Source: Escherichia coli
GTDB taxonomy: Bacteria; Pseudomonadota; Gammaproteobacteria; Enterobacterales; Enterobacteriaceae
DNA: 64,000 nucleotides
Assembly: GCF_024502345.1 (NCBI RefSeq)
Contig: NZ_JALDNN010000001.1
Direction: 5' to 3' (one strand)
Positions within the stretch are counted from its first letter, which is position 1; each line of letters opens with the position of its first letter. Below are positions 14,121 through 50,856 of the stretch, piece by piece. The position numbers and the translations under genes were made by a program. The notes under the pieces are model-generated. The model searched no databases, was not told where the DNA came from, and saw only the letters and a program-made list of their open reading frames with translations.

Positions 14121-14196
14121 TGGCTCCTCTGACTGGACTCGAACCAGTGACATACGGATTAACAGTCCGCCGTTCTACCGACTGAACTACAGAGGA
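14121..14196 (-). tRNA. asnT: tRNA-Asn (GUU)
   Basis: Reverse complement reads TCCTCTGTAGTTCAGTCGGTAGAACGGCGGACTGTTAATCCGTATGTCACTGGTTCGAGTCCAGTCAGAGGAGCCA, the canonical E. coli tRNA-Asn. Confidence 0.95.
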
Positions 14197-15187: not shown

Positions 15188-15277
15188 GGAGAGATGCCGG
15201 AGCGGCTGAACGGACCGGTCTCGAAAACCGGAGTAGGGGCAACTCTACCGGGGGTTCAAATCCCCCTCTCTCCGCCA
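15188..15277 (+). tRNA. serU: tRNA-Ser (CGA)
   Basis: GGAGAGATGCCGGAGCGGCTGAACGGACCGGTCTCGAAAACCGGAGTAGGGGCAACTCTACCGGGGGTTCAAATCCCCCTCTCTCCGCCA: long variable arm with CGA anticodon. Confidence 0.95.
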
Positions 15278-17626: not shown

Positions 17627-18262
17627 TTATACAGATAATTTGTTGTGAACCTGCTTGCGTAACCGGTTAAAAAGGGAACGCAACTTCTTATACCGTAAGG
17701 CTAAAAGCAGTACAGCCAGCCCAGCGTAGATGAGCGGCTGCGGTGAAATAATCTTCACTGACCACAGATAATGTATTGGGGCCAGGATCGCGACAAGATA
17801 GACGAAATTATGCAACTGTTGCCAGTGCTTGCCGAGTTTTCGCTGCATCGCCTGGGTTGAAGTAAACGCTAAAGCAAGCAAAATAACCCAGCTGATAATT
17901 CCTAACGTTAAATAAGGCCGGGTAATTAACTCCTTGCCTAATAACGCCAGATTATTCACGCCCAGCTCCAGCAATGCGTAACTGGTTAAATGCAGTGTCG
18001 CCCAGGCAAAGCACCATAAGCCTAACAGGCGGCGAGTGCGTATCAATAACGGCTGTTTTGCGTAGCGTGCCAGAGGTGTGATTAACAAGGTCGCCAGCAA
18101 AAATTTCAGTGCAGTGCGACCGGTAAAATGCTGAATATCTTTCACCGGATCGGCACCCAGTCCACCGTGATTGATCGCCCAGACCAGCCAGAGAAACGGC
18201 AACAATCCGGCAAGATGCAGGCTAACTTTCAGCCATGTCACCTGTTTTGCTGTCAGACGCAT
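17627..18262 (-). CDS. msrQ: Methionine sulfoxide reductase haem-binding membrane subunit
   Basis: 211-aa polytopic membrane protein directly downstream of msrP; the stop/start junction is contiguous. Confidence 0.85.
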
Positions 18263-19273
<1,011 letters not shown>

Positions 19274-19375: not shown

Positions 19376-19789
19376 TTAACTGCCACGATAGGTTGAATAC
19401 CCATATTGGCTAAGTAATAAAGGCACATGATAATGCTCGTTCACTTTATTAATATGAAATTCAACGGGGATCTCAGGGAAGAAACTTTCAAGATTTTGTT
19501 TCTTGAAATAGTCCCCGGTTTTAAATACGACACGGTAATCGCCAGTAGTCGCAGTTTGCTCGGGCCACAGTGCCTTAATTCGTCCATCCTTATCTGTTTT
19601 GGCGGTATTAAGTTGTAACCAGCCGTTATCCGCCTTCTTTTCAAGAGTGACTGTCACGTCAGCAGCGGGTTTTCCGGTTTGCTGGTTCAAAATGTGCACG
19701 CTAAGAATGTTTTGTTGTGCGGCATAAACCAAAGAAGGTAATGAAAATGCTGCCGTTGCTACCGAGAGTACTAAATAACGCTTTAACAT
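19376..19789 (-). CDS. hiuH: 5-hydroxyisourate hydrolase (transthyretin-like periplasmic protein)
   Basis: 137 aa with a signal peptide; the C-terminal YRGS motif is typical of transthyretin-family HIU hydrolases. Confidence 0.85.
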
Positions 19790-20006
19790 GTTTATATCCT
19801 TGTCATGTGAATGAGTTTTGAGGATAGCGAAAAAGCGGCCAGGGTAACCTTACAGCAGCATTACAATTTTGTAATGAACCAGGCTGTTTCTATAACATAT
19901 GATTTATGGCATATTATTTTCATGAAGATTTTACTTATTGAAGATAATCAAAGGACCCAGGAGTGGGTAACGCAGGGGCTTTCCGAAGCGGGTTATGTCA
20001 TTGATG

Positions 20007-21063
20007 GGCTTTGTTGAATAAATCGAACTTTTGCTGAGTTGAAGGATCAGATCACGTATCTTCCCGACAACGCAGACCGTTCCGTGGCAAAGCAAAAGTT
20101 CAAAATCACCAACTGGCCCACCTACAATAAAGCCCTCATCAACCGTGGCTCCATAACTTTCTGGCTGGATGATGAAGCTATTCAGGCCTGGTATGAGTCA
20201 GCAACACCTTCTTCACGAGGCAGACCTCAGCGCTATTCTGACCTTGCCATCACGACTGTGCTGGTCATTAAACGCGTATTCAGGCTGACCCTGCGCGCTG
20301 CGCAGGGCTTTATTGATTCCATTTTTTCTCTGATGAACGTTCCGCTACGCTGCCCGGATTACAGCTGTGTCAGCAGGCGGGCAAAGTCGGTTAATGTCAG
20401 TTTCAAAACGCCCACCCGGGGTGAAATCGCACACCTGGTAATTGATTCCACCGGGCTGAAGGTCTTCGGTGAAGGCGAGTGGAAAGTCAAAAAGCATGGC
20501 CAGGAACGCCGCCGTATCTGGCGTAAGCTGCATCTCGCCGTTGACAGTAAAACACATGAAATCATCTGCGCTGACCTGTCGCTGAACAACGTTACGGACT
20601 CAGAGGCCTTCCCCGGGTTAATCCGGCAAACCCACCGGAAAATCAGGTCAGCCGCCGCCGATGGCGCTTACGATACCCGGCTATGTCACGATGAACTGCG
20701 GCGTAAGAAAATCAGCGCGCTTATCCCTCCCCGAAAAGGTGCGGGTTACTGGCCCGGTGAATATGCAGACCGTAACCGTGCAGTGGCTAATCAGCGAATG
20801 ACCGGGAGTAATGCGCGGTGGAAATGGACAACAGATTACAACCGTCGCTCGATAGCGGAAACGGCGATGTACCGGGTAAAACAGCTGTTCGGGGGTTCAC
20901 TGACACTGCGTGACTACGATGGTCAGGTTGCAGAGGCTATGGCCCTGGTACGAGCGCTGAACAAAATGACGAAAGCAGGTATGCCTGAAAGCGTGCGTAT
21001 TGCCTGAAAACACAACCCGCTACGGGGGAGACTTACCCGAAATCTGATTTATTCAACAAAGCC
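20007..21063 (+). mobile_element. IS903-like element (IS5 family, IS903 group), 1057 bp, copy 1
   Basis: Terminal repeats GGCTTTGTTGAATAAATCG at both ends, a 322-aa transposase, and a 9-bp target-site duplication TCATTGATG (19998-20006 and 21064-21072). Confidence 0.9.
20039..21007 (+). CDS. IS903-group DDE transposase
   Basis: 322-aa ORF filling the element. The 5' DNA matches remembered IS903 sequence (GGCTTTGTTGAATAAATCGAACTTTTGCTGAGTTGAAGGATCAGATCACG...). Confidence 0.85.
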   Translation: MKDQITYLPDNADRSVAKQKFKITNWPTYNKALINRGSITFWLDDEAIQAWYESATPSSRGRPQRYSDLAITTVLVIKRVFRLTLRAAQGFIDSIFSLMNVPLRCPDYSCVSRRAKSVNVSFKTPTRGEIAHLVIDSTGLKVFGEGEWKVKKHGQERRRIWRKLHLAVDSKTHEIICADLSLNNVTDSEAFPGLIRQTHRKIRSAAADGAYDTRLCHDELRRKKISALIPPRKGAGYWPGEYADRNRAVANQRMTGSNARWKWTTDYNRRSIAETAMYRVKQLFGGSLTLRDYDGQVAEAMALVRALNKMTKAGMPESVRIA

Positions 21064-21552
21064 TCATTGATGCCGTTTCTGATGGCAGAGATGGGCTTTA
21101 TCTTGCGCTGAAGGATGATTATGCATTGATCATTCTGGATATTATGCTTCCGGGTATGGATGGCTGGCAGATCTTACAAACGTTAAGAACAGCAAAGCAA
21201 ACCCCTGTTATTTGCCTTACTGCAAGGGATTCTGTCGATGACAGAGTCAGAGGGCTGGACAGTGGAGCAAATGATTATCTGGTAAAACCTTTTTCATTTT
21301 CTGAGTTGCTGGCAAGGGTTCGGGCACAATTAAGGCAACATCACGCTTTGAATTCAACATTAGAAATCAGTGGCTTAAGAATGGACTCTGTAAGTCAAAG
21401 TGTGAGCAGGGACAATATCAGTATTACACTGACGCGCAAGGAGTTTCAGTTACTTTGGCTACTGGCCTCCAGAGCTGGCGAAATTATACCCAGAACGGTT
21501 ATTGCGAGTGAAATTTGGGGAATCAACTTTGATAGTGATACCAATACGGTGG

Positions 21553-22609
21553 GGCTTTGTTGAATAAATCAGATTTCGGGTAAGTCTCCCCCGTAGCGGG
21601 TTGTGTTTTCAGGCAATACGCACGCTTTCAGGCATACCTGCTTTCGTCATTTTGTTCAGCGCTCGTACCAGGGCCATAGCCTCTGCAACCTGACCATCGT
21701 AGTCACGCAGTGTCAGTGAACCCCCGAACAGCTGTTTTACCCGGTACATCGCCGTTTCCGCTATCGAGCGACGGTTGTAATCTGTTGTCCATTTCCACCG
21801 CGCATTACTCCCGGTCATTCGCTGATTAGCCACTGCACGGTTACGGTCTGCATATTCACCGGGCCAGTAACCCGCACCTTTTCGGGGAGGGATAAGCGCG
21901 CTGATTTTCTTACGCCGCAGTTCATCGTGACATAGCCGGGTATCGTAAGCGCCATCGGCGGCGGCTGACCTGATTTTCCGGTGGGTTTGCCGGATTAACC
22001 CGGGGAAGGCCTCTGAGTCCGTAACGTTGTTCAGCGACAGGTCAGCGCAGATGATTTCATGTGTTTTACTGTCAACGGCGAGATGCAGCTTACGCCAGAT
22101 ACGGCGGCGTTCCTGGCCATGCTTTTTGACTTTCCACTCGCCTTCACCGAAGACCTTCAGCCCGGTGGAATCAATTACCAGGTGTGCGATTTCACCCCGG
22201 GTGGGCGTTTTGAAACTGACATTAACCGACTTTGCCCGCCTGCTGACACAGCTGTAATCCGGGCAGCGTAGCGGAACGTTCATCAGAGAAAAAATGGAAT
22301 CAATAAAGCCCTGCGCAGCGCGCAGGGTCAGCCTGAATACGCGTTTAATGACCAGCACAGTCGTGATGGCAAGGTCAGAATAGCGCTGAGGTCTGCCTCG
22401 TGAAGAAGGTGTTGCTGACTCATACCAGGCCTGAATAGCTTCATCATCCAGCCAGAAAGTTATGGAGCCACGGTTGATGAGGGCTTTATTGTAGGTGGGC
22501 CAGTTGGTGATTTTGAACTTTTGCTTTGCCACGGAACGGTCTGCGTTGTCGGGAAGATACGTGATCTGATCCTTCAACTCAGCAAAAGTTCGATTTATTC
22601 AACAAAGCC
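21553..22609 (-). mobile_element. IS903-like element, 1057 bp, copy 2 (inverted relative to copy 1)
   Basis: Same inverted repeats; transposase protein identical to copy 1. Own 9-bp target-site duplication ATACGGTGG (21544-21552 and 22610-22618). Confidence 0.9.
21609..22577 (-). CDS. IS903-group DDE transposase
   Basis: Translation identical to the 20039..21007 ORF. Confidence 0.85.
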
Positions 22610-22724
22610 ATACGGTGGATGTCGCCATTCGCAGGCTCCGCGCAAAAGTTGATGATCCTTTTCCTGAAAAGCTAATCGCCACAATCCGGGGGATGGGCTA
22701 TTCATTCGTAGCGGTAAAAAAATA

Positions 22725-24083
22725 ATGAAAAGATTATCTATAACCGTCCGTTTAACCTTGCTTTTTATATTGCTGCTGTCTGTTGCTGGCGCTGGAATTG
22801 TCTGGACTCTCTATAATGGCCTGGCAAGTGAGTTGAAATGGCGCGATGATACAACACTCATTAACCGGACAGCACAGATCAAGCAGTTGTTAATTGATGG
22901 GGTAAATCCAGATACGTTACCTGTATACTTTAACCGGATGATGGATGTTAGTCAGGATATCTTGATCATTCATGGTGATAGCATCAATAAAATTGTTAAC
23001 CGGACAAATGTCAGTGATGACATGTTAAATAACATACCTGCTAGTGAGACAATCAGCGCAGCTGGCATTTACAGAAGCATTATTAATGATACTGAGATTG
23101 ATGCTTTACGAATTAATATTGATGAAGTTTCGCCATCATTAACGGTTACTGTGGCTAAATTGGCTTCAGCCAGACATAACATGCTTGAACAGTATAAAAT
23201 TAATAGCATTGTAATTTGCATTGTCGCCATTGTACTTTGCTCAGTATTAAGTCCGCTGTTAATCAGAACGGGATTACGAGAGATCAAAAAGTTGAGTGGT
23301 GTAACGGAAGCGCTGAATTATAACGATAGCCGGGAGCCTGTTGAGGTTAGCGCATTACCGAGAGAACTAAAACCTCTTGGGCAGGCGTTGAATAAAATGC
23401 ATCAAGCCTTAGTCAAAGATTTTGAACGCCTAAGTCAATTTGCTGACGATCTCGCTCATGAACTTAGAACGCCCATTAATGCATTACTGGGTCAGAATCA
23501 GGTTACGCTCAGTCAAACCAGAAGTATCGCTGAATATCAAAAAACAATTGCCGGTAACATTGAAGAGTTGGAAAATATTTCGCGGTTAACAGAGAACATA
23601 CTGTTTCTTGCCCGGGCAGATAAAAACAATGTTTTGGTGAAACTGGACTCGCTTTCTCTCAATAAGGAAGTCGAAAATTTGTTGGATTATCTTGAATATC
23701 TTTCAGACGAGAAAGAGATTTTCTTTAAGGTCGAGTGCAATCAGCAAATCTTTGCGGATAAAATTTTACTGCAACGAATGTTATCGAATCTTATTGTTAA
23801 TGCCATTAGATATTCACCAGAAAAATCGCGTATTCATATAACCAGTTTTCTTGATACCAACGGCTATCTTAATATTGATATCGCCAGTCCTGGAACGAAA
23901 ATACATGAGCCTGAAAAACTCTTCCGTAGATTTTGGCGGGGAGATAATTCGCGTCATTCCGTAGGTCAGGGACTTGGTCTTTCTTTAGTCAAAGCGATTG
24001 CCGAATTGCATGGGGGAAGTGCTTCATATCACTATCTCAATAAGCATAATGTGTTCCGAATTACGTTACCGCAAAGAAATTAA
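22725..24083 (+). CDS. hprS: Sensor histidine kinase HprS (YedV)
   Basis: Two transmembrane segments, an H-box (ELRTPINALLG) and an ATPase G-box (GQGLGLSLVKAIAELHGG). Its ATG follows the hprR stop directly. Confidence 0.85.
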   Translation: MKRLSITVRLTLLFILLLSVAGAGIVWTLYNGLASELKWRDDTTLINRTAQIKQLLIDGVNPDTLPVYFNRMMDVSQDILIIHGDSINKIVNRTNVSDDMLNNIPASETISAAGIYRSIINDTEIDALRINIDEVSPSLTVTVAKLASARHNMLEQYKINSIVICIVAIVLCSVLSPLLIRTGLREIKKLSGVTEALNYNDSREPVEVSALPRELKPLGQALNKMHQALVKDFERLSQFADDLAHELRTPINALLGQNQVTLSQTRSIAEYQKTIAGNIEELENISRLTENILFLARADKNNVLVKLDSLSLNKEVENLLDYLEYLSDEKEIFFKVECNQQIFADKILLQRMLSNLIVNAIRYSPEKSRIHITSFLDTNGYLNIDIASPGTKIHEPEKLFRRFWRGDNSRHSVGQGLGLSLVKAIAELHGGSASYHYLNKHNVFRITLPQRN

Positions 24084-26750: not shown

Positions 26751-27379
26751 TATGTATTCCCTTGTGATTATAATCTTCATGAATATATCAATAAGTGCCG
26801 TTATCCAAAAAAAAGCACATTTGGATACTATTCTATGAAGTTCATTTTATTTTAAAGATTACATGTAACAAATGTATTTAAAAGATTTCAAAATGTTTCT
26901 AATCTATTTAATATAATTTAGAATTATGAATTCTAAATATAAATATTCATGAAAATTATAAATGTATATCAATATGTTATGAGTTGAGCGGAAGCATAGG
27001 GGGTATCAATGATTGTTGCGCCAAACGGCTGGTGTGATCACGCGCACATTAATGAAGGCATAAAAAAAAGCCGGCATCATGCCGGCCCAAAAAATATAAA
27101 CAAGACGATAAAAGGCTAATAACGGAGGCATCATGACACAGAAAAATAAAAAGGTATAATTGTATTCAGTGCTAATATATTGATTAAATGAATTAATAAA
27201 GCCGATCTCAAAGATAAATAAAATCGCTCAAAACGATTTTTCCTGTATTCACTGCCGTTGCGCAAAAATTATCTATTTGTTCAAAAAATGAGTGAGTCTT
27301 GACTGGCTCATCCAATGTGGAAAAATGTGACTTTTATCACATAATAGTACTAAGTCTGAATTTTCCGGGTTATCTCAAA

Positions 27380-35487: not shown

Positions 35488-35574
35488 AACACATCAGATT
35501 TCCTGGTGTAACGAATTTTTTAAGTGCTTCTTGCTTAAGCAAGTTTCATCCCGACCCCCTCAGGGTCGGGATTT
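35488..35574 (+). ncRNA. dsrA: DsrA small regulatory RNA (Hfq-dependent; activates rpoS translation, represses hns)
   Basis: AACACATCAGATTTCCTGGTGTAACGAATTTTTTAAGTGCTTCTTGCTTAAGCAAGTTTCATCCCGACCCCCTCAGGGTCGGGATTT matches the remembered DsrA sequence, including the terminator hairpin and U-tract. Confidence 0.9.
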
Positions 35575-48097: not shown

Positions 48098-48299
48098 GTT
48101 TTGTAACCTGTTGTTAATTACTTCCAATCTCACCGCTTGGGGCATGGATGGGGCAAACTCACTCAATTTCTGGTTTAAAATGGATACCTGATCCTGAAAG
48201 TTTTCTGCCATCCACGATCCGTAAACGCGATAACATGTTTTGTCGGTGATGCTGCCAACTTACTGATTTAGTGTATGATGGTGTTTTTGAGGTGCTCCA

Positions 48300-48575
48300 G
48301 TGGCTTCTGTTTCTATCAGCTGTCCCTCCTGTTCAGCTACTGACGGGGTGGTGCGTAACGGCAAAAGCACCGCCGGACATCAGCGCTATCTCTGCTCTCA
48401 CTGCCGTAAAACATGGCAACTGCAGTTCACTTACACCGCTTCTCAACCCGGTACGCACCAGAAAATCATTGATATGGCCATGAATGGCGTTGGATGCCGG
48501 GCAACCGCCCGCATTATGGGCGTTGGCCTCAACACGATTTTCCGCCATTTAAAAAACTCAGGCCGCAGTCGGTAA
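48300..48575 (+). CDS. insA: IS1 InsA
   Basis: Translation identical to the copy A InsA. Confidence 0.95.
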
Positions 48576-48997
48576 CCTCGCGCATACAGCCGGGCAGTGA
48601 CGTCATCGTCTGCGCGGAAATGGACGAACAGTGGGGATACGTCGGGGCTAAATCGCGCCAGCGCTGGCTGTTTTACGCGTATGACAGGCTCCGGAAGACG
48701 GTTGTTGCGCACGTATTCGGTGAACGCACTATGGCGACGCTGGGGCGTCTTATGAGCCTGCTGTCACCCTTTGACGTGGTGATATGGATGACGGATGGCT
48801 GGCCGCTGTATGAATCCCGCCTGAAGGGAAAGCTGCACGTAATCAGCAAGCGATATACGCAGCGAATTGAGCGGCATAACCTGAATCTGAGGCAGCACCT
48901 GGCACGGCTGGGACGGAAGTCGCTGTCGTTCTCAAAATCGGTGGAGCTGCATGACAAAGTCATCGGGCATTATCTGAACATAAAACACTATCAATAA
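48494..48997 (+). CDS. insB: IS1 InsB'
   Basis: Identical to copy A except for one residue. Confidence 0.9.
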
Positions 48998-49208
48998 GTT
49001 GGAGTCATTACCTTGCGTAAGATAGATGAGACAAACTGAGACGCATAATGGTTTGCAAGGCTCTAATACTTTGATGTTGAGGATGTGATGGGGCATGTAC
49101 GGGGCATAGTACAATGATGTCCATGCTGGTGTAGATAATCTCCAGGCTTATCCGGTGCGCCGTAAAACCCCGTCCTTCAGGGCAGGGATATAAGGCGTGG
49201 TTTTCCAC

Positions 49209-49647: not shown

Positions 49648-50856
49648 GTGAAACGACTACAAGCATTTAAATTCCAGTTAAGACCCGGTGGTCAACAGGA
49701 GCGTGAAATGAGGCGCTTCGCAGGCGCATGTCGTTTCGTTTTCAATCGTGCTCTGGCACGTCAGAATGAGAATCATGAGGCCGGTAATAAATACATCCCT
49801 TACGGGAAAATGGCTTCCTGGCTGGTTGAGTGGAAAAATGCCACTGAAACGCAATGGCTTAAAGATGCCCCGTCACAGCCATTGCAACAGTCACTGAAAG
49901 ACCTTGAGCGGGCTTACAAAAACTTCTTCCAGAATCGGGCTGCTTTTCCCCGATTCAAAAAGCGGGGACAGAATGATGTATTCCGCTACCCGCAGGGCGT
50001 TAAGCTCGATCAGGAAAACAGCCGTATTTTTCTGCCGAAACTGGGCTGGATGCGCTACCGGAACAGCCGTCAGGTCACGGGTGTTGTGAAAAATGTCACT
50101 GTCAGCCAGTCCTGCGGTAAGTGGTACATCAGTATTCAGACAGAAAGTGAAGTATCAACTCCGGTTCACCCTTCAGCATCAATGGTCGGGCTGGATGCTG
50201 GCGTGGCTAAACTCGCCACGCTGTCAGATGGCACAGTCTTTGAGCCTGTAAACAGTTTTCAGAAAAACCAGAAGAAGCTGGCGAGACTTCAGCGACAGTT
50301 AAGCCGCAAGGTCAAATTCAGCAACAACTGGCAGAAGCAGAAACGCAAAATACAGCGACTGCATTCCTGTATCGCAAATATCCGCAGGGACTACCTTCAC
50401 AAAGTCACAACGACCGTCAGCAAAAACCACGCAATGATAGTCATTGAGGATTTGAAGGTCAGCAACATGTCAAAGTCAGCAGCGGGTACGGTCAGCCAGC
50501 CGGGGCGCAATGTCCGGGCAAAATCAGGTTTAAACCGTTCGATACTGGATCAGGGCTGGTATGAAATGCGCCGCCAGCTTGAGTACAAGCAGCTCTGGCG
50601 TGGCGGTCAGGTGCTTGCTGTTCCGCCAGCGTACACAAGCCAGCGTTGCGCGTGCTGTGGTCATACAGCGAAAGAAAACCGCCTGTCACAAAGTAAATTC
50701 AGATGCCAGGTATGTGGATATACAGCGAACGCCGATGTAAATGGCGCTCGTAACATTTTAGCGGCGGGGCACGCCGTTCTTGCCTGTGGAGAGATGGTGC
50801 AGTCAGGCCGCCCGTTGAAGCAGGAACCCACCGAAATGATTCAGGCGACAGCCTGA
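49648..50856 (+). CDS. tnpB: TnpB (OrfB) RNA-guided endonuclease, Cas12 ancestor (OMEGA-type)
   Basis: 402 aa with a RuvC-like core and a C-terminal zinc finger (CxxC...CxxC: QRCACCGH...[18 protein letters not shown]). Confidence 0.85.

Follow-up and report, generated by a model that had tools for sequence, protein, structure and literature searches.

Two oppositely oriented IS903B copies interrupt the response-regulator gene hprR in an Escherichia coli genome

The response-regulator gene hprR of this E. coli strain is interrupted at codons 29 and 189 by two IS903B elements in opposite orientation, each of them bordered by its own 9-bp target-site duplication. With a probability of roughly 80%, this arrangement goes back to two separate, simple and recent IS903B transpositions into the chromosomal gene, resulting in a null allele and in the loss of oxidant induction of the neighbouring hiuH-msrPQ operon. 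The locus lies in the window, the 64,000-nucleotide stretch of contig NZ_JALDNN010000001.1 that was analysed, and represents an ordinary IS-driven knock-out in an IS-dense region of an IS-active genome. The positions of all features are listed in Table 1.

Table 1. Features of the hprR region, with positions in the window
Feature	Position	Strand	Description
msrQ	17627-18262	-	full length; 241 bits on NF003831, above cut-off
msrP	18263-19267	-	full length; 507 bits on NF003767, above cut-off
hiuH	19376-19789	-	full length; 295 bits on NF011610, above cut-off
HprR/CusR box CATTACAATTTTGTAATG	19859-19876		hiuH-hprR intergenic region; intact; exact match to the reverse complement of the published box
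hprR 5' fragment	19922-20006	+	codons 1-28 and first base of codon 29; ends in the left TCATTGATG copy (9 nt)
IS903B copy A	20007-21063	+	1057 bp; terminal inverted repeats 20007-20024 and 21046-21063; transposase ORF 20039-21007
hprR middle fragment	21064-21552	+	489 bp, native orientation; starts with the right TCATTGATG copy, ends with the left ATACGGTGG copy
IS903B copy B	21553-22609	-	1057 bp; exact reverse complement of copy A; transposase ORF 21609-22577 (-)
hprR 3' fragment	22610-22725	+	starts with the right ATACGGTGG copy (22610-22618); TAA 22723-22725 overlaps the hprS start
hprS (sensor kinase)	22725-24083	+	intact 452-aa ORF; 319 bits on TIGR01386

Structure of the interrupted gene

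In agreement with the initial annotation, which described two identical 1057-bp IS903-group elements in opposite orientation, direct sequence comparison shows 100% identity of copies A and B as reverse complements. The inverted-repeat arms (20007-21066 and 21550-22609) are 100% complementary, and the 3 bp by which each arm exceeds the element are a chance run into the flanks, the elements proper measuring 1057 bp. The 18-bp terminal repeat GGCTTTGTTGAATAAATC occurs exactly four times in the window, each time as an IS end, with none expected. Both transposase ORFs encode 322 amino acids and reach 357 bits in a profile search with NF033579, 'IS5 family transposase' (cut-off 140). Both IS DNAs are identical to copies that encode WP_000654812.1, and copy A shows 100% identity with the IS903B elements of E. 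coli 730V1. Compared with RefSeq-annotated IS903B, copies A and B are 98.7-100% identical, and compared with the Tn903-type IS903 flanking aph(3')-Ia 95.9%; the name IS903B rests on the RefSeq annotation together with this lower identity to the Tn903-type element. A length of ~1057 bp, perfect 18-bp terminal repeats, 9-bp direct duplications and a single IS5-family DDE transposase ORF place the elements, as judged from sequence, in the IS903 group of the IS5 family. They are like the known IS903B, first described in Tn2680 (Mollet et al. 1985, as cited in PMC7986276), in length, repeats, duplication and transposase ORF; no structural difference was found, and the copies here merely occupy a new site. 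Three further IS copies are present in the window.

Copy A is bordered by TCATTGATG at 19998-20006 and 21064-21072, copy B by ATACGGTGG at 21544-21552 and 22610-22618. All 9 bp are exact in both cases, which confirms that each element has its own duplication, and a mis-calling of these repeats, considered as a possible objection, was not borne out. A single 9/9 match would arise by chance with a probability of 3.8e-6, and the empty sites of a sister strain contain one copy of each 9-bp sequence. The hprR segment between the elements measures 489 bp, as previously noted.

The location proposed for hprR, 19921-22724, was right as to the locus and one base off at its ends; including the insertions, the gene extends from the ATG at 19922 to 22725, where its stop codon overlaps the ATG of hprS. 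Copy A sits after gene nucleotide 85 (codon 29), in the receiver domain, ahead of the phospho-acceptor Asp51, and copy B after gene nucleotide 565 (codon 189), in the winged-helix DNA-binding domain. As present, the hprR frame continues into IS sequence and terminates at 31 amino acids. In silico removal of both ISs and of one copy of each duplication yields a 672-nt ORF of 223 codons for amino acids, whose product is identical to WP_001339045.1 and reaches 483 bits with the HprR equivalog NF008567 (cut-off 353), in line with the claim that hprR was struck twice, each time with its own duplication. The restored protein comprises Response_reg (PF00072, residues 3-112) and Trans_reg_C (PF00486, 146-218) domains and contains Asp51. 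The OmpR-type receiver, the winged helix and the equivalog match are thus features of the restored ORF only, the present gene lying in three pieces, of which the middle one matches the intact hprR of many E. coli genomes at 100% identity. The context is that of hprR as well: the gene is divergent from hiuH-msrPQ with a shared HprR/CusR box, hprS follows, and the order is as in annotated genomes. The hprR allele is predicted to be null, and in this strain the gene should be annotated as a pseudogene.

Origin of the inverted pair

After removal of both insertions, 13,359 bp align without gaps with contig LLYD01000084.1 of the sister strain (GCA_001484235.1), the only mismatch being a synonymous change private to the sister strain. 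This gapless match points to clean, recent, simple insertions. As the rest of the gene is unchanged and the near-identical sister keeps the empty sites, the events are very recent. The same contig also matches the window up to 48300, with 2 mismatches over 17,017 bp, and its end lies 56 bp inside an IS1 at 48245. Since it is free of ISs at hprR and reaches into the IS1, the sister strain has an intact hprR and shares the IS1, which, judging from this comparison, is older than the hprR insertions. Neither insertion occurs in any of the 5,426 complete E. coli genomes, searched with junction-spanning queries of 3.2 kb and 689 bp; the three matches with at least 80% coverage are hprR joined to an IS903B in the neighbouring hiuH. 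Scans of genome contigs and metagenome contigs for the exact junction patterns gave no match, and no exact-protein record was found for the three possible truncated HprR products.

In the favoured reading, identical IS903B copies would have entered the single-copy gene hprR in two simple transposition events, each creating its own 9-bp duplication, with copy B opposite in orientation to copy A. The same two-insertion architecture with separate duplications is found at other loci in strains 3090 and Z0117EC0133. Simple IS insertions are known to inactivate regulator genes, e.g. IS903B in Klebsiella mgrB. There, as here, a small regulatory gene is inactivated by a simple insertion that duplicates its target; the present case differs in that two hits occurred, the target is the HprR oxidant-response regulator, and no selected phenotype is known.

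The initial annotation had regarded the elements as independent insertions rather than parts of a composite transposon. The latter part of this claim stands, while independence is not demonstrable from sequence, because A and B share one sequence, which is also met in other genomes. One IS903B insertion followed by a duplicative inversion (intramolecular replicative transposition) and a later homologous flip-back of the segment would be predicted to leave the flanks a/a and t/t, which match those observed. IS903 is cited in PMC7986276 as capable of alternative transposition pathways, and in strain 730V1, where two IS903B copies of 100% identity lie 478 bp from each other, the segment between them is inverted and one duplication is split over the two copies as AGTAATAGT and its reverse complement, so the inverted state exists in nature. 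Close inverted IS903 pairs are present in 42 of ~2,000 IS903-bearing genomes. However, this frequency exceeds what chance would roughly give by no more than a few-fold, the gaps between paired IS903 copies show no skew to short distances, and the scenario takes three events instead of two. In contrast to 730V1, the segment here is in native orientation with direct duplications around each copy, i.e. the simple state and not that of an unresolved duplicative inversion. A literature search returned no paper joining duplicative inversion with IS903, the classic papers lying outside its scope. Overall, we consider this route unlikely.

Since neither insertion was met in any other genome or contig searched and the sister-strain assembly is IS-free at hprR, the inverted duplicate might be suspected to be an assembly artefact, for instance through a misplaced repeat or a chimeric or palindromic joining of long reads, with truly one IS or none at the locus. 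Such an error would not, however, account for exact IS termini together with exact 9-bp duplications that differ between the two sites, nor would it leave a host gene restorable to the base, and the same architecture is seen in independent complete genomes; an artefact is therefore very improbable. Inverted IS903-group copies around a short segment also resemble Tn903, in which IS903 flanks aph(3')-Ia, and a composite transposon of this type could have inserted into hprR as a unit with its passenger. The 'passenger', however, would be hprR codons 26-189, 100% identical to intact hprR and collinear with the flanks, and the duplications border each IS instead of the whole unit, whose outer flanks, TCATTGATG and ATACGGTGG, differ. 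The collinearity of the 489-bp segment with the intact sister-strain allele refutes the composite transposon, the chance of which is negligible. The likeness to Tn903 and to IS903 duplicative-inversion products consists in two identical inverted copies a few hundred bp apart, and in an enclosed segment that, as in Tn903-type structures, could in principle move or invert; unlike in these, the DNA enclosed here is native and keeps its original orientation, and direct duplications border each copy separately. The two 1057-bp inverted copies left by two simple insertions could recombine and flip the 489-bp segment, an inversion which the initial annotation had foreseen and which is plausible, with a natural precedent in strain 730V1.

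Consequences for hprS and the hiuH-msrPQ operon

The description of hprS as an orphaned kinase appears overstated: its ORF is intact but lies behind two ISs with no sigma-70-like site facing it. HprS retains Met72, Met153, Cys165 and the HELRTP histidine box, residues whose importance is described in bioRxiv 10.1101/2021.09.09.459708, and identical protein records exist from contigs with an intact hprR. A simple consensus scan, which weak or hybrid promoters escape, found no sigma-70-like site on the + strand between copy B and hprS, and the read-out from the second element into hprS that was proposed for checking found no support in it. The transposase gene of copy B (-) is directed away from hprS, and a search of the literature for outward-facing IS903 promoters gave nothing relevant. 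Because translation is coupled to hprR, two ISs lie upstream and no promoter faces the gene, a polar loss of hprS is likely; hprS is thus probably silent and not an active orphan, and its functionality should not be assumed in annotation.

Alternatively, an unrecognised promoter within or close to the end of copy B could still drive hprS, with HprS cross-phosphorylating CusR, so that oxidant control would be partly kept. The intact ORF with its key residues would allow this, and HprR and CusR share one common recognition sequence, with cross-regulation described (PMC9302797). On the other hand, no promoter-like site faces hprS, the copy B transposase gene points the other way, and what was found of the literature on HprSR and CusSR gave no support for phosphotransfer from HprS to CusR. 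The published mutants that are not inducible by HOCl lack both hprR and hprS, so they provide no direct test of an HprS acting alone. We regard continued signalling by HprS as rather improbable.

The hiuH and msrPQ genes upstream are intact, as had been stated, all three being full length and above their equivalog cut-offs. They form an HprR-controlled operon (PMC9302797), whose induction by HOCl is driven by HprSR (PMC9302797; bioRxiv 10.1101/2021.09.09.459708), in agreement with the role in the hypochlorite response given to HprRS in the initial annotation. Together with the operon, HprSR is described as central to the survival of E. coli exposed to HOCl or urate hydroperoxide and to its fitness in the inflamed gut (PMC9302797, PMC13252058). 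According to PMC9302797, deletion of hprRS in K-12 abolishes the ~60-fold induction of msrP by HOCl, while CusSR still gives ~4-fold copper induction of msrP in K-12 without HprSR; PMC13252058 reports no hiuH-msrPQ induction and death under urate hydroperoxide for an hprRS deletion mutant. The HprR/CusR box, published as CATTACAAAATTGTAATG (PMC9302797), is preserved in the strain studied here.

With hprR null and hprS expression likely lost by polarity, the strain, unless a second hprR copy lies outside the window, can probably no longer induce hiuH-msrPQ, its genes for periplasmic methionine repair and urate-peroxide defence, with HOCl or urate hydroperoxide, a phenotype extrapolated from the K-12 and Nissle deletion mutants. 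A weaker, CusSR-dependent copper induction should be kept via the intact shared box, provided that cusRS, which lies outside the window, is intact. The suggestion that CusR cross-talk may compensate would hence apply to copper control, which should survive, but not to the oxidant response, which should not (PMC9302797). Laboratory hprRS (yedWV) deletions in K-12 likewise lack the regulator and keep hiuH-msrPQ with its operator box, and the same phenotype is expected, namely induction by copper but none by HOCl or urate hydroperoxide (PMC9302797; PMC13252058). In contrast to these deletions, the allele described here is a natural one, known from sequence alone, and keeps the hprS coding sequence. 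The hprR-null strain and an almost isogenic sister of the GCA_001484235.1 type with an intact gene may form a natural control pair for the HprSR pathway, which could be used to ask whether CusSR alone sustains basal msrPQ expression.

Clustering of IS903 copies

An IS903-type copy is present in hiuH, msrQ or nearby in five genomes, compared to ~4 expected by a rough estimate from 4,712 chromosomal IS903 copies and roughly 0.09% of the genome. With no excess over expectation, the locus as an IS903B hot spot was dropped.

The double hit might also be more than a coincidence, reflecting either local or self-targeted re-insertion of IS903B, or selection against HprR after which the gene became a neutral sink. 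If the genome has only two IS903B copies, two insertions 489 bp apart would occur by chance with a probability of ~2e-4. A small number of IS903B copies in the genome, if this is the case, would favour a local or donor-linked second event: for about 5 copies or fewer the chance probability stays below 0.002, whereas for 30 or more it rises to about 0.1, at which coincidence becomes plausible. Close inverted IS903 pairs amount to 43 records, 31 of them chromosomal, which reduce to ~12 independent events, compared with ~4-10 records expected from sampled copy numbers. The excess is few-fold at most, and clonality, composite transposons and the heavy tail of the copy-number distribution all confound it. 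We consider a connection between the two hits improbable.

Closely spaced inverted IS903-type pairs with separate duplications are also seen in other E. coli strains, at loci unrelated to hprR, and some IS903-like copies sit at, or a few bp from, the ends of other IS903 elements.

Structure of the disrupted hprR gene

The response regulator gene hprR (yedW) is interrupted twice by the same insertion sequence. In this region a repeat search detected a single large inverted repeat, whose arms (20007-21066 and 21550-22609) are 100% complementary, and trimming to the element ends left two 1057-bp copies, A and B, which are exact reverse complements and lie 489 bp apart. An 18-bp repeat, GGCTTTGTTGAATAAATC, forms both ends of each copy and is found nowhere else in the 64-kb window, where none is expected by chance. 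Each copy has its own exact 9-bp target duplication and an intact transposase ORF (322 aa), the two genes converging on the 489-bp fragment. Termini and duplications thus agree with the two inverted copies described in the initial annotation, and the duplications were not mis-called; the gene was also named correctly, but its ends had been shifted by one base.

We assign the inserted element to IS903B. Its transposase scores 357 bits (cut-off 140) on the NCBIfam model NF033579, 'IS5 family transposase'. At 100% identity, both match copies from E. coli strains 730V1 and 23CRST031 annotated by RefSeq as 'IS5-like element IS903B family transposase', and they are 98.7-99.9% identical to many further RefSeq IS903B copies, while identity to the Tn903-type IS903 copies around aph(3')-Ia is only 95.9%.

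In-silico deletion of each IS together with one copy of its duplication restores an ORF of 672 nt, the 223-aa product of which scores 483 bits (cut-off 353) on the HprR equivalog NF008567 and equals WP_001339045.1 residue for residue. From the Pfam boundaries (receiver, residues 3-112; DNA-binding, 146-218), copy A breaks the receiver domain at codon 29, N-terminal of Asp51, and copy B the winged helix at codon 189. hprR is a single-copy gene (median one place per genome among complete E. coli genomes), and no second copy was seen within the 64-kb window. The hprS ORF is intact (452 aa) and keeps Met72, Met153, Cys165 and the HELRTP histidine box, all reported to be important (bioRxiv 10.1101/2021.09.09.459708). 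As annotated, the HprR targets are intact, with hiuH, msrP and msrQ full length and above their equivalog cut-offs. The HprR/CusR box CATTACAAAATTGTAATG (PMC9302797) is unaltered on the opposite strand. hprRS and hiuH are AT-rich (39-44% GC, window 50%).

Coordinates of features in the window and, for loci L001-L004, L011 and L014 from other E. coli genomes, in the respective locus
Feature	Coordinates	Remark
IS903B copy A	20007-21063	+ strand
IS903B copy B	21553-22609	- strand
Target duplication, copy A	19998-20006, 21064-21072	TCATTGATG, exact
Target duplication, copy B	21544-21552, 22610-22618	ATACGGTGG, exact
hprR start	19922	ATG
hprR stop	22723-22725	TAA, overlaps hprS ATG at 22725
HprR/CusR box	19859-19876	
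First IS1	3861-4628	
Second IS1	48245-49012	
IS3-family element	~6357-7693	
yeeJ-like gene	4548-13884	
yeeJ-like pieces	11791-13884, 7652-11563, 4548-6440	
RseX, DsrA sRNAs	27063-27152, 35488-35574	ordinary features
tRNA-Asn, tRNA-Ser	14121-14196, 15188-15277	ordinary features
IS200/IS605-type TnpB gene	49648-50856	ordinary feature
L001, L002, L004	3001-4057 in each	IS903-type copy
L003	3003-4059	IS903-type copy
L011	1501-4092	IS903B pair
L014	4552-6667	IS903-type pair

Age and origin of the two copies

The recorded contigs that encode an identical HprS protein all have an intact hprR, among them LLYD01000084.1 of the sister strain GCA_001484235.1. Compared with the IS-free reconstruction, this contig shows no gaps and one mismatch over 13,359 bp, a synonymous A/G difference at window position 19933 (hprR codon 4) that is private to the sister strain; as the window has the common base, the disrupted hprR carries no derived change. 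The contig runs on to window position 48300 (17,017 bp compared, 2 mismatches) and ends 56 bp into the second IS1, a usual break point for a short-read contig. Judged from this alignment, the sister strain has the older IS1, yet both hprR target sites are empty, and because of this we regard the IS903B copies as very recent, precise arrivals, with no further rearrangement or subsequent gene decay. The collinearity also rules out a composite transposon inserted as a unit, in agreement with the annotation, which had rejected one on the strength of the separate duplications.

Neither hprR insertion was present in any of 5,426 complete E. coli genomes; three apparent matches to the disrupted allele proved to be hprR joined to IS903B in the adjacent hiuH. 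Both junction sequences were not found in the species-representative genome and metagenome collections, and none of the three conceivable truncated HprR products is on record as a protein.

On the sequence, the locus is the result of two transposition products, but the independence claimed in the initial annotation does not follow. An intramolecular duplicative inversion from the first copy, followed by a homologous flip-back between the inverted copies, would yield exactly the flanks seen, and IS903 is cited as a user of alternative pathways (PMC7986276). The identity of the copies is uninformative on the donor, since identical copies also occur in unrelated strains. Both states of the segment between such copies are known in nature. 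Strains 3090 and Z0117EC0133 (gaps of 453 and 350 bp) have the native state, with an identical inverted pair and a separate duplication per copy; 730V1 (gap 478 bp) has the inverted state, with one duplication split as AGTAATAGT and its reverse complement ACTATTACT, which makes the annotated possibility of inversion between the copies plausible.

Chance proximity of two separate insertions depends on copy number, the probability of two copies lying <=489 bp apart being approx. 2e-4, 0.04 and 0.2 for genomes with 2, 20 and 47 IS903B copies, respectively. A second insertion would have come at no cost, because the first had already killed hprR. A search with the IS plus inverted IS as query, accepting gaps up to about 1.56 kb, gave 43 records of close inverted IS903 pairs, 31 of them chromosomal, reducing to ~12 independent events. 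Copy numbers in a spread sample put the chromosomal IS pairs of the collection at an estimated 14,000 or more, for which random placement predicts about 4-10 such records against the 31 chromosomal ones. This excess is few-fold at most, with clonality and composite transposons as confounders, and the gaps show no skew to short distances.

In other strains (loci L001-L004), IS903-type copies are found within the HprR regulon at two different sites in hiuH (duplications AAGAGTGAC and GGTAATCGC), in msrQ (duplication ACCGTAAGG), and in place of hiuH, there with no duplication and with an IS1 in msrP alongside. The idea of the hprR locus as an IS903B hot spot was dropped, because the five copies seen near it about equal the random expectation of about four, based on about 4,700 chromosomal copies in the collection and a ~4-kb search window around hprR.

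At locus L011 of E. coli O19:H7 730V1, the two 100%-identical copies lie in an alpha-mannosidase gene, with the segment between them inverted relative to the flanks; where a second duplication pair would be expected, none can be recognised, pointing to a further event. At locus L014 a 93%-identical IS903-type copy lies 2 bp from an IS903B end, and its duplication, CAAAGCCAA, includes the IS terminus. In BL12, GS04, BHD6 and NT1F31 (matches H76-H78 and H87 of the pair search) two IS903-type copies fall within about 2,123-2,127 bp. Copies at or near other IS903 ends hint that IS903-type elements may prefer IS ends as targets.

Expected consequences for hiuH-msrPQ and hprS

In K-12, hiuH-msrPQ is reported to form a single operon, in which msrP loses its roughly 60-fold induction by HOCl when hprRS is deleted, and its roughly 4-fold induction by copper depends on CusSR, not HprSR (PMC9302797). 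A 2026 preprint describes an hprRS deletion mutant that lacks operon induction and loses viability under urate hydroperoxide, and reports that the module contributes to fitness in the inflamed gut (PMC13252058). Because the published hprRS deletions lose this induction, the strain should be blind to HOCl and urate hydroperoxide at hiuH-msrPQ; copper control should persist if cusRS is intact. The compensation by CusR that had been considered can preserve copper induction but, going by the published mutants, not HOCl induction.

The kinase gene hprS had been called orphaned. Its ORF is intact, but it is probably silent rather than an active orphan, because the hprR stop overlaps its start, two ISs precede it and copy B has its transposase gene directed away from it; a promoter scan, a weak negative, found no sigma-70-like site facing it. 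The hprR allele is a new instance of the familiar insertional inactivation by IS903B in an IS-active genome, and the strain could be of use as a natural hprR null, paired with a near-isogenic sister in which the gene is intact.

Other insertion elements of the window

The window is IS-dense, with two IS1 and one IS3-family element besides both IS903B copies. The IS1 copies are direct repeats, and both are devoid of a 9-bp target duplication. Compared with NCTC9082, the window lacks about 800 bp beside the first IS1 and some 2.8 kb (emrE-ybcL-ybcM) beside the second; this second IS1 is common to GCA_001484235.1, GCA_036619395.1 and GCA_013046445.1. The two IS1 copies bracket about 43.6 kb including the whole hprRS/msrPQ/fli region, which recombination between them could delete.

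The IS3-family element (IS2 group; 416 bits on NF006918, below the cut-off) recurs at 100% identity on other E. coli chromosomes and on plasmids. It is flanked by a 16-17-bp direct duplication, (A)CTGTTTTCAGTCCGAC, which is single-copy in NCTC9082 and unusually long, as IS3-family duplications usually measure 3-5 bp. The element lies inside a yeeJ-like inverse-autotransporter (Ig-like) adhesin gene, a single 7,983-bp ORF in NCTC9082, which is in three pieces here: the IS3-family element interrupts it, IS1 truncates it and a further break lies near 11563-11791.
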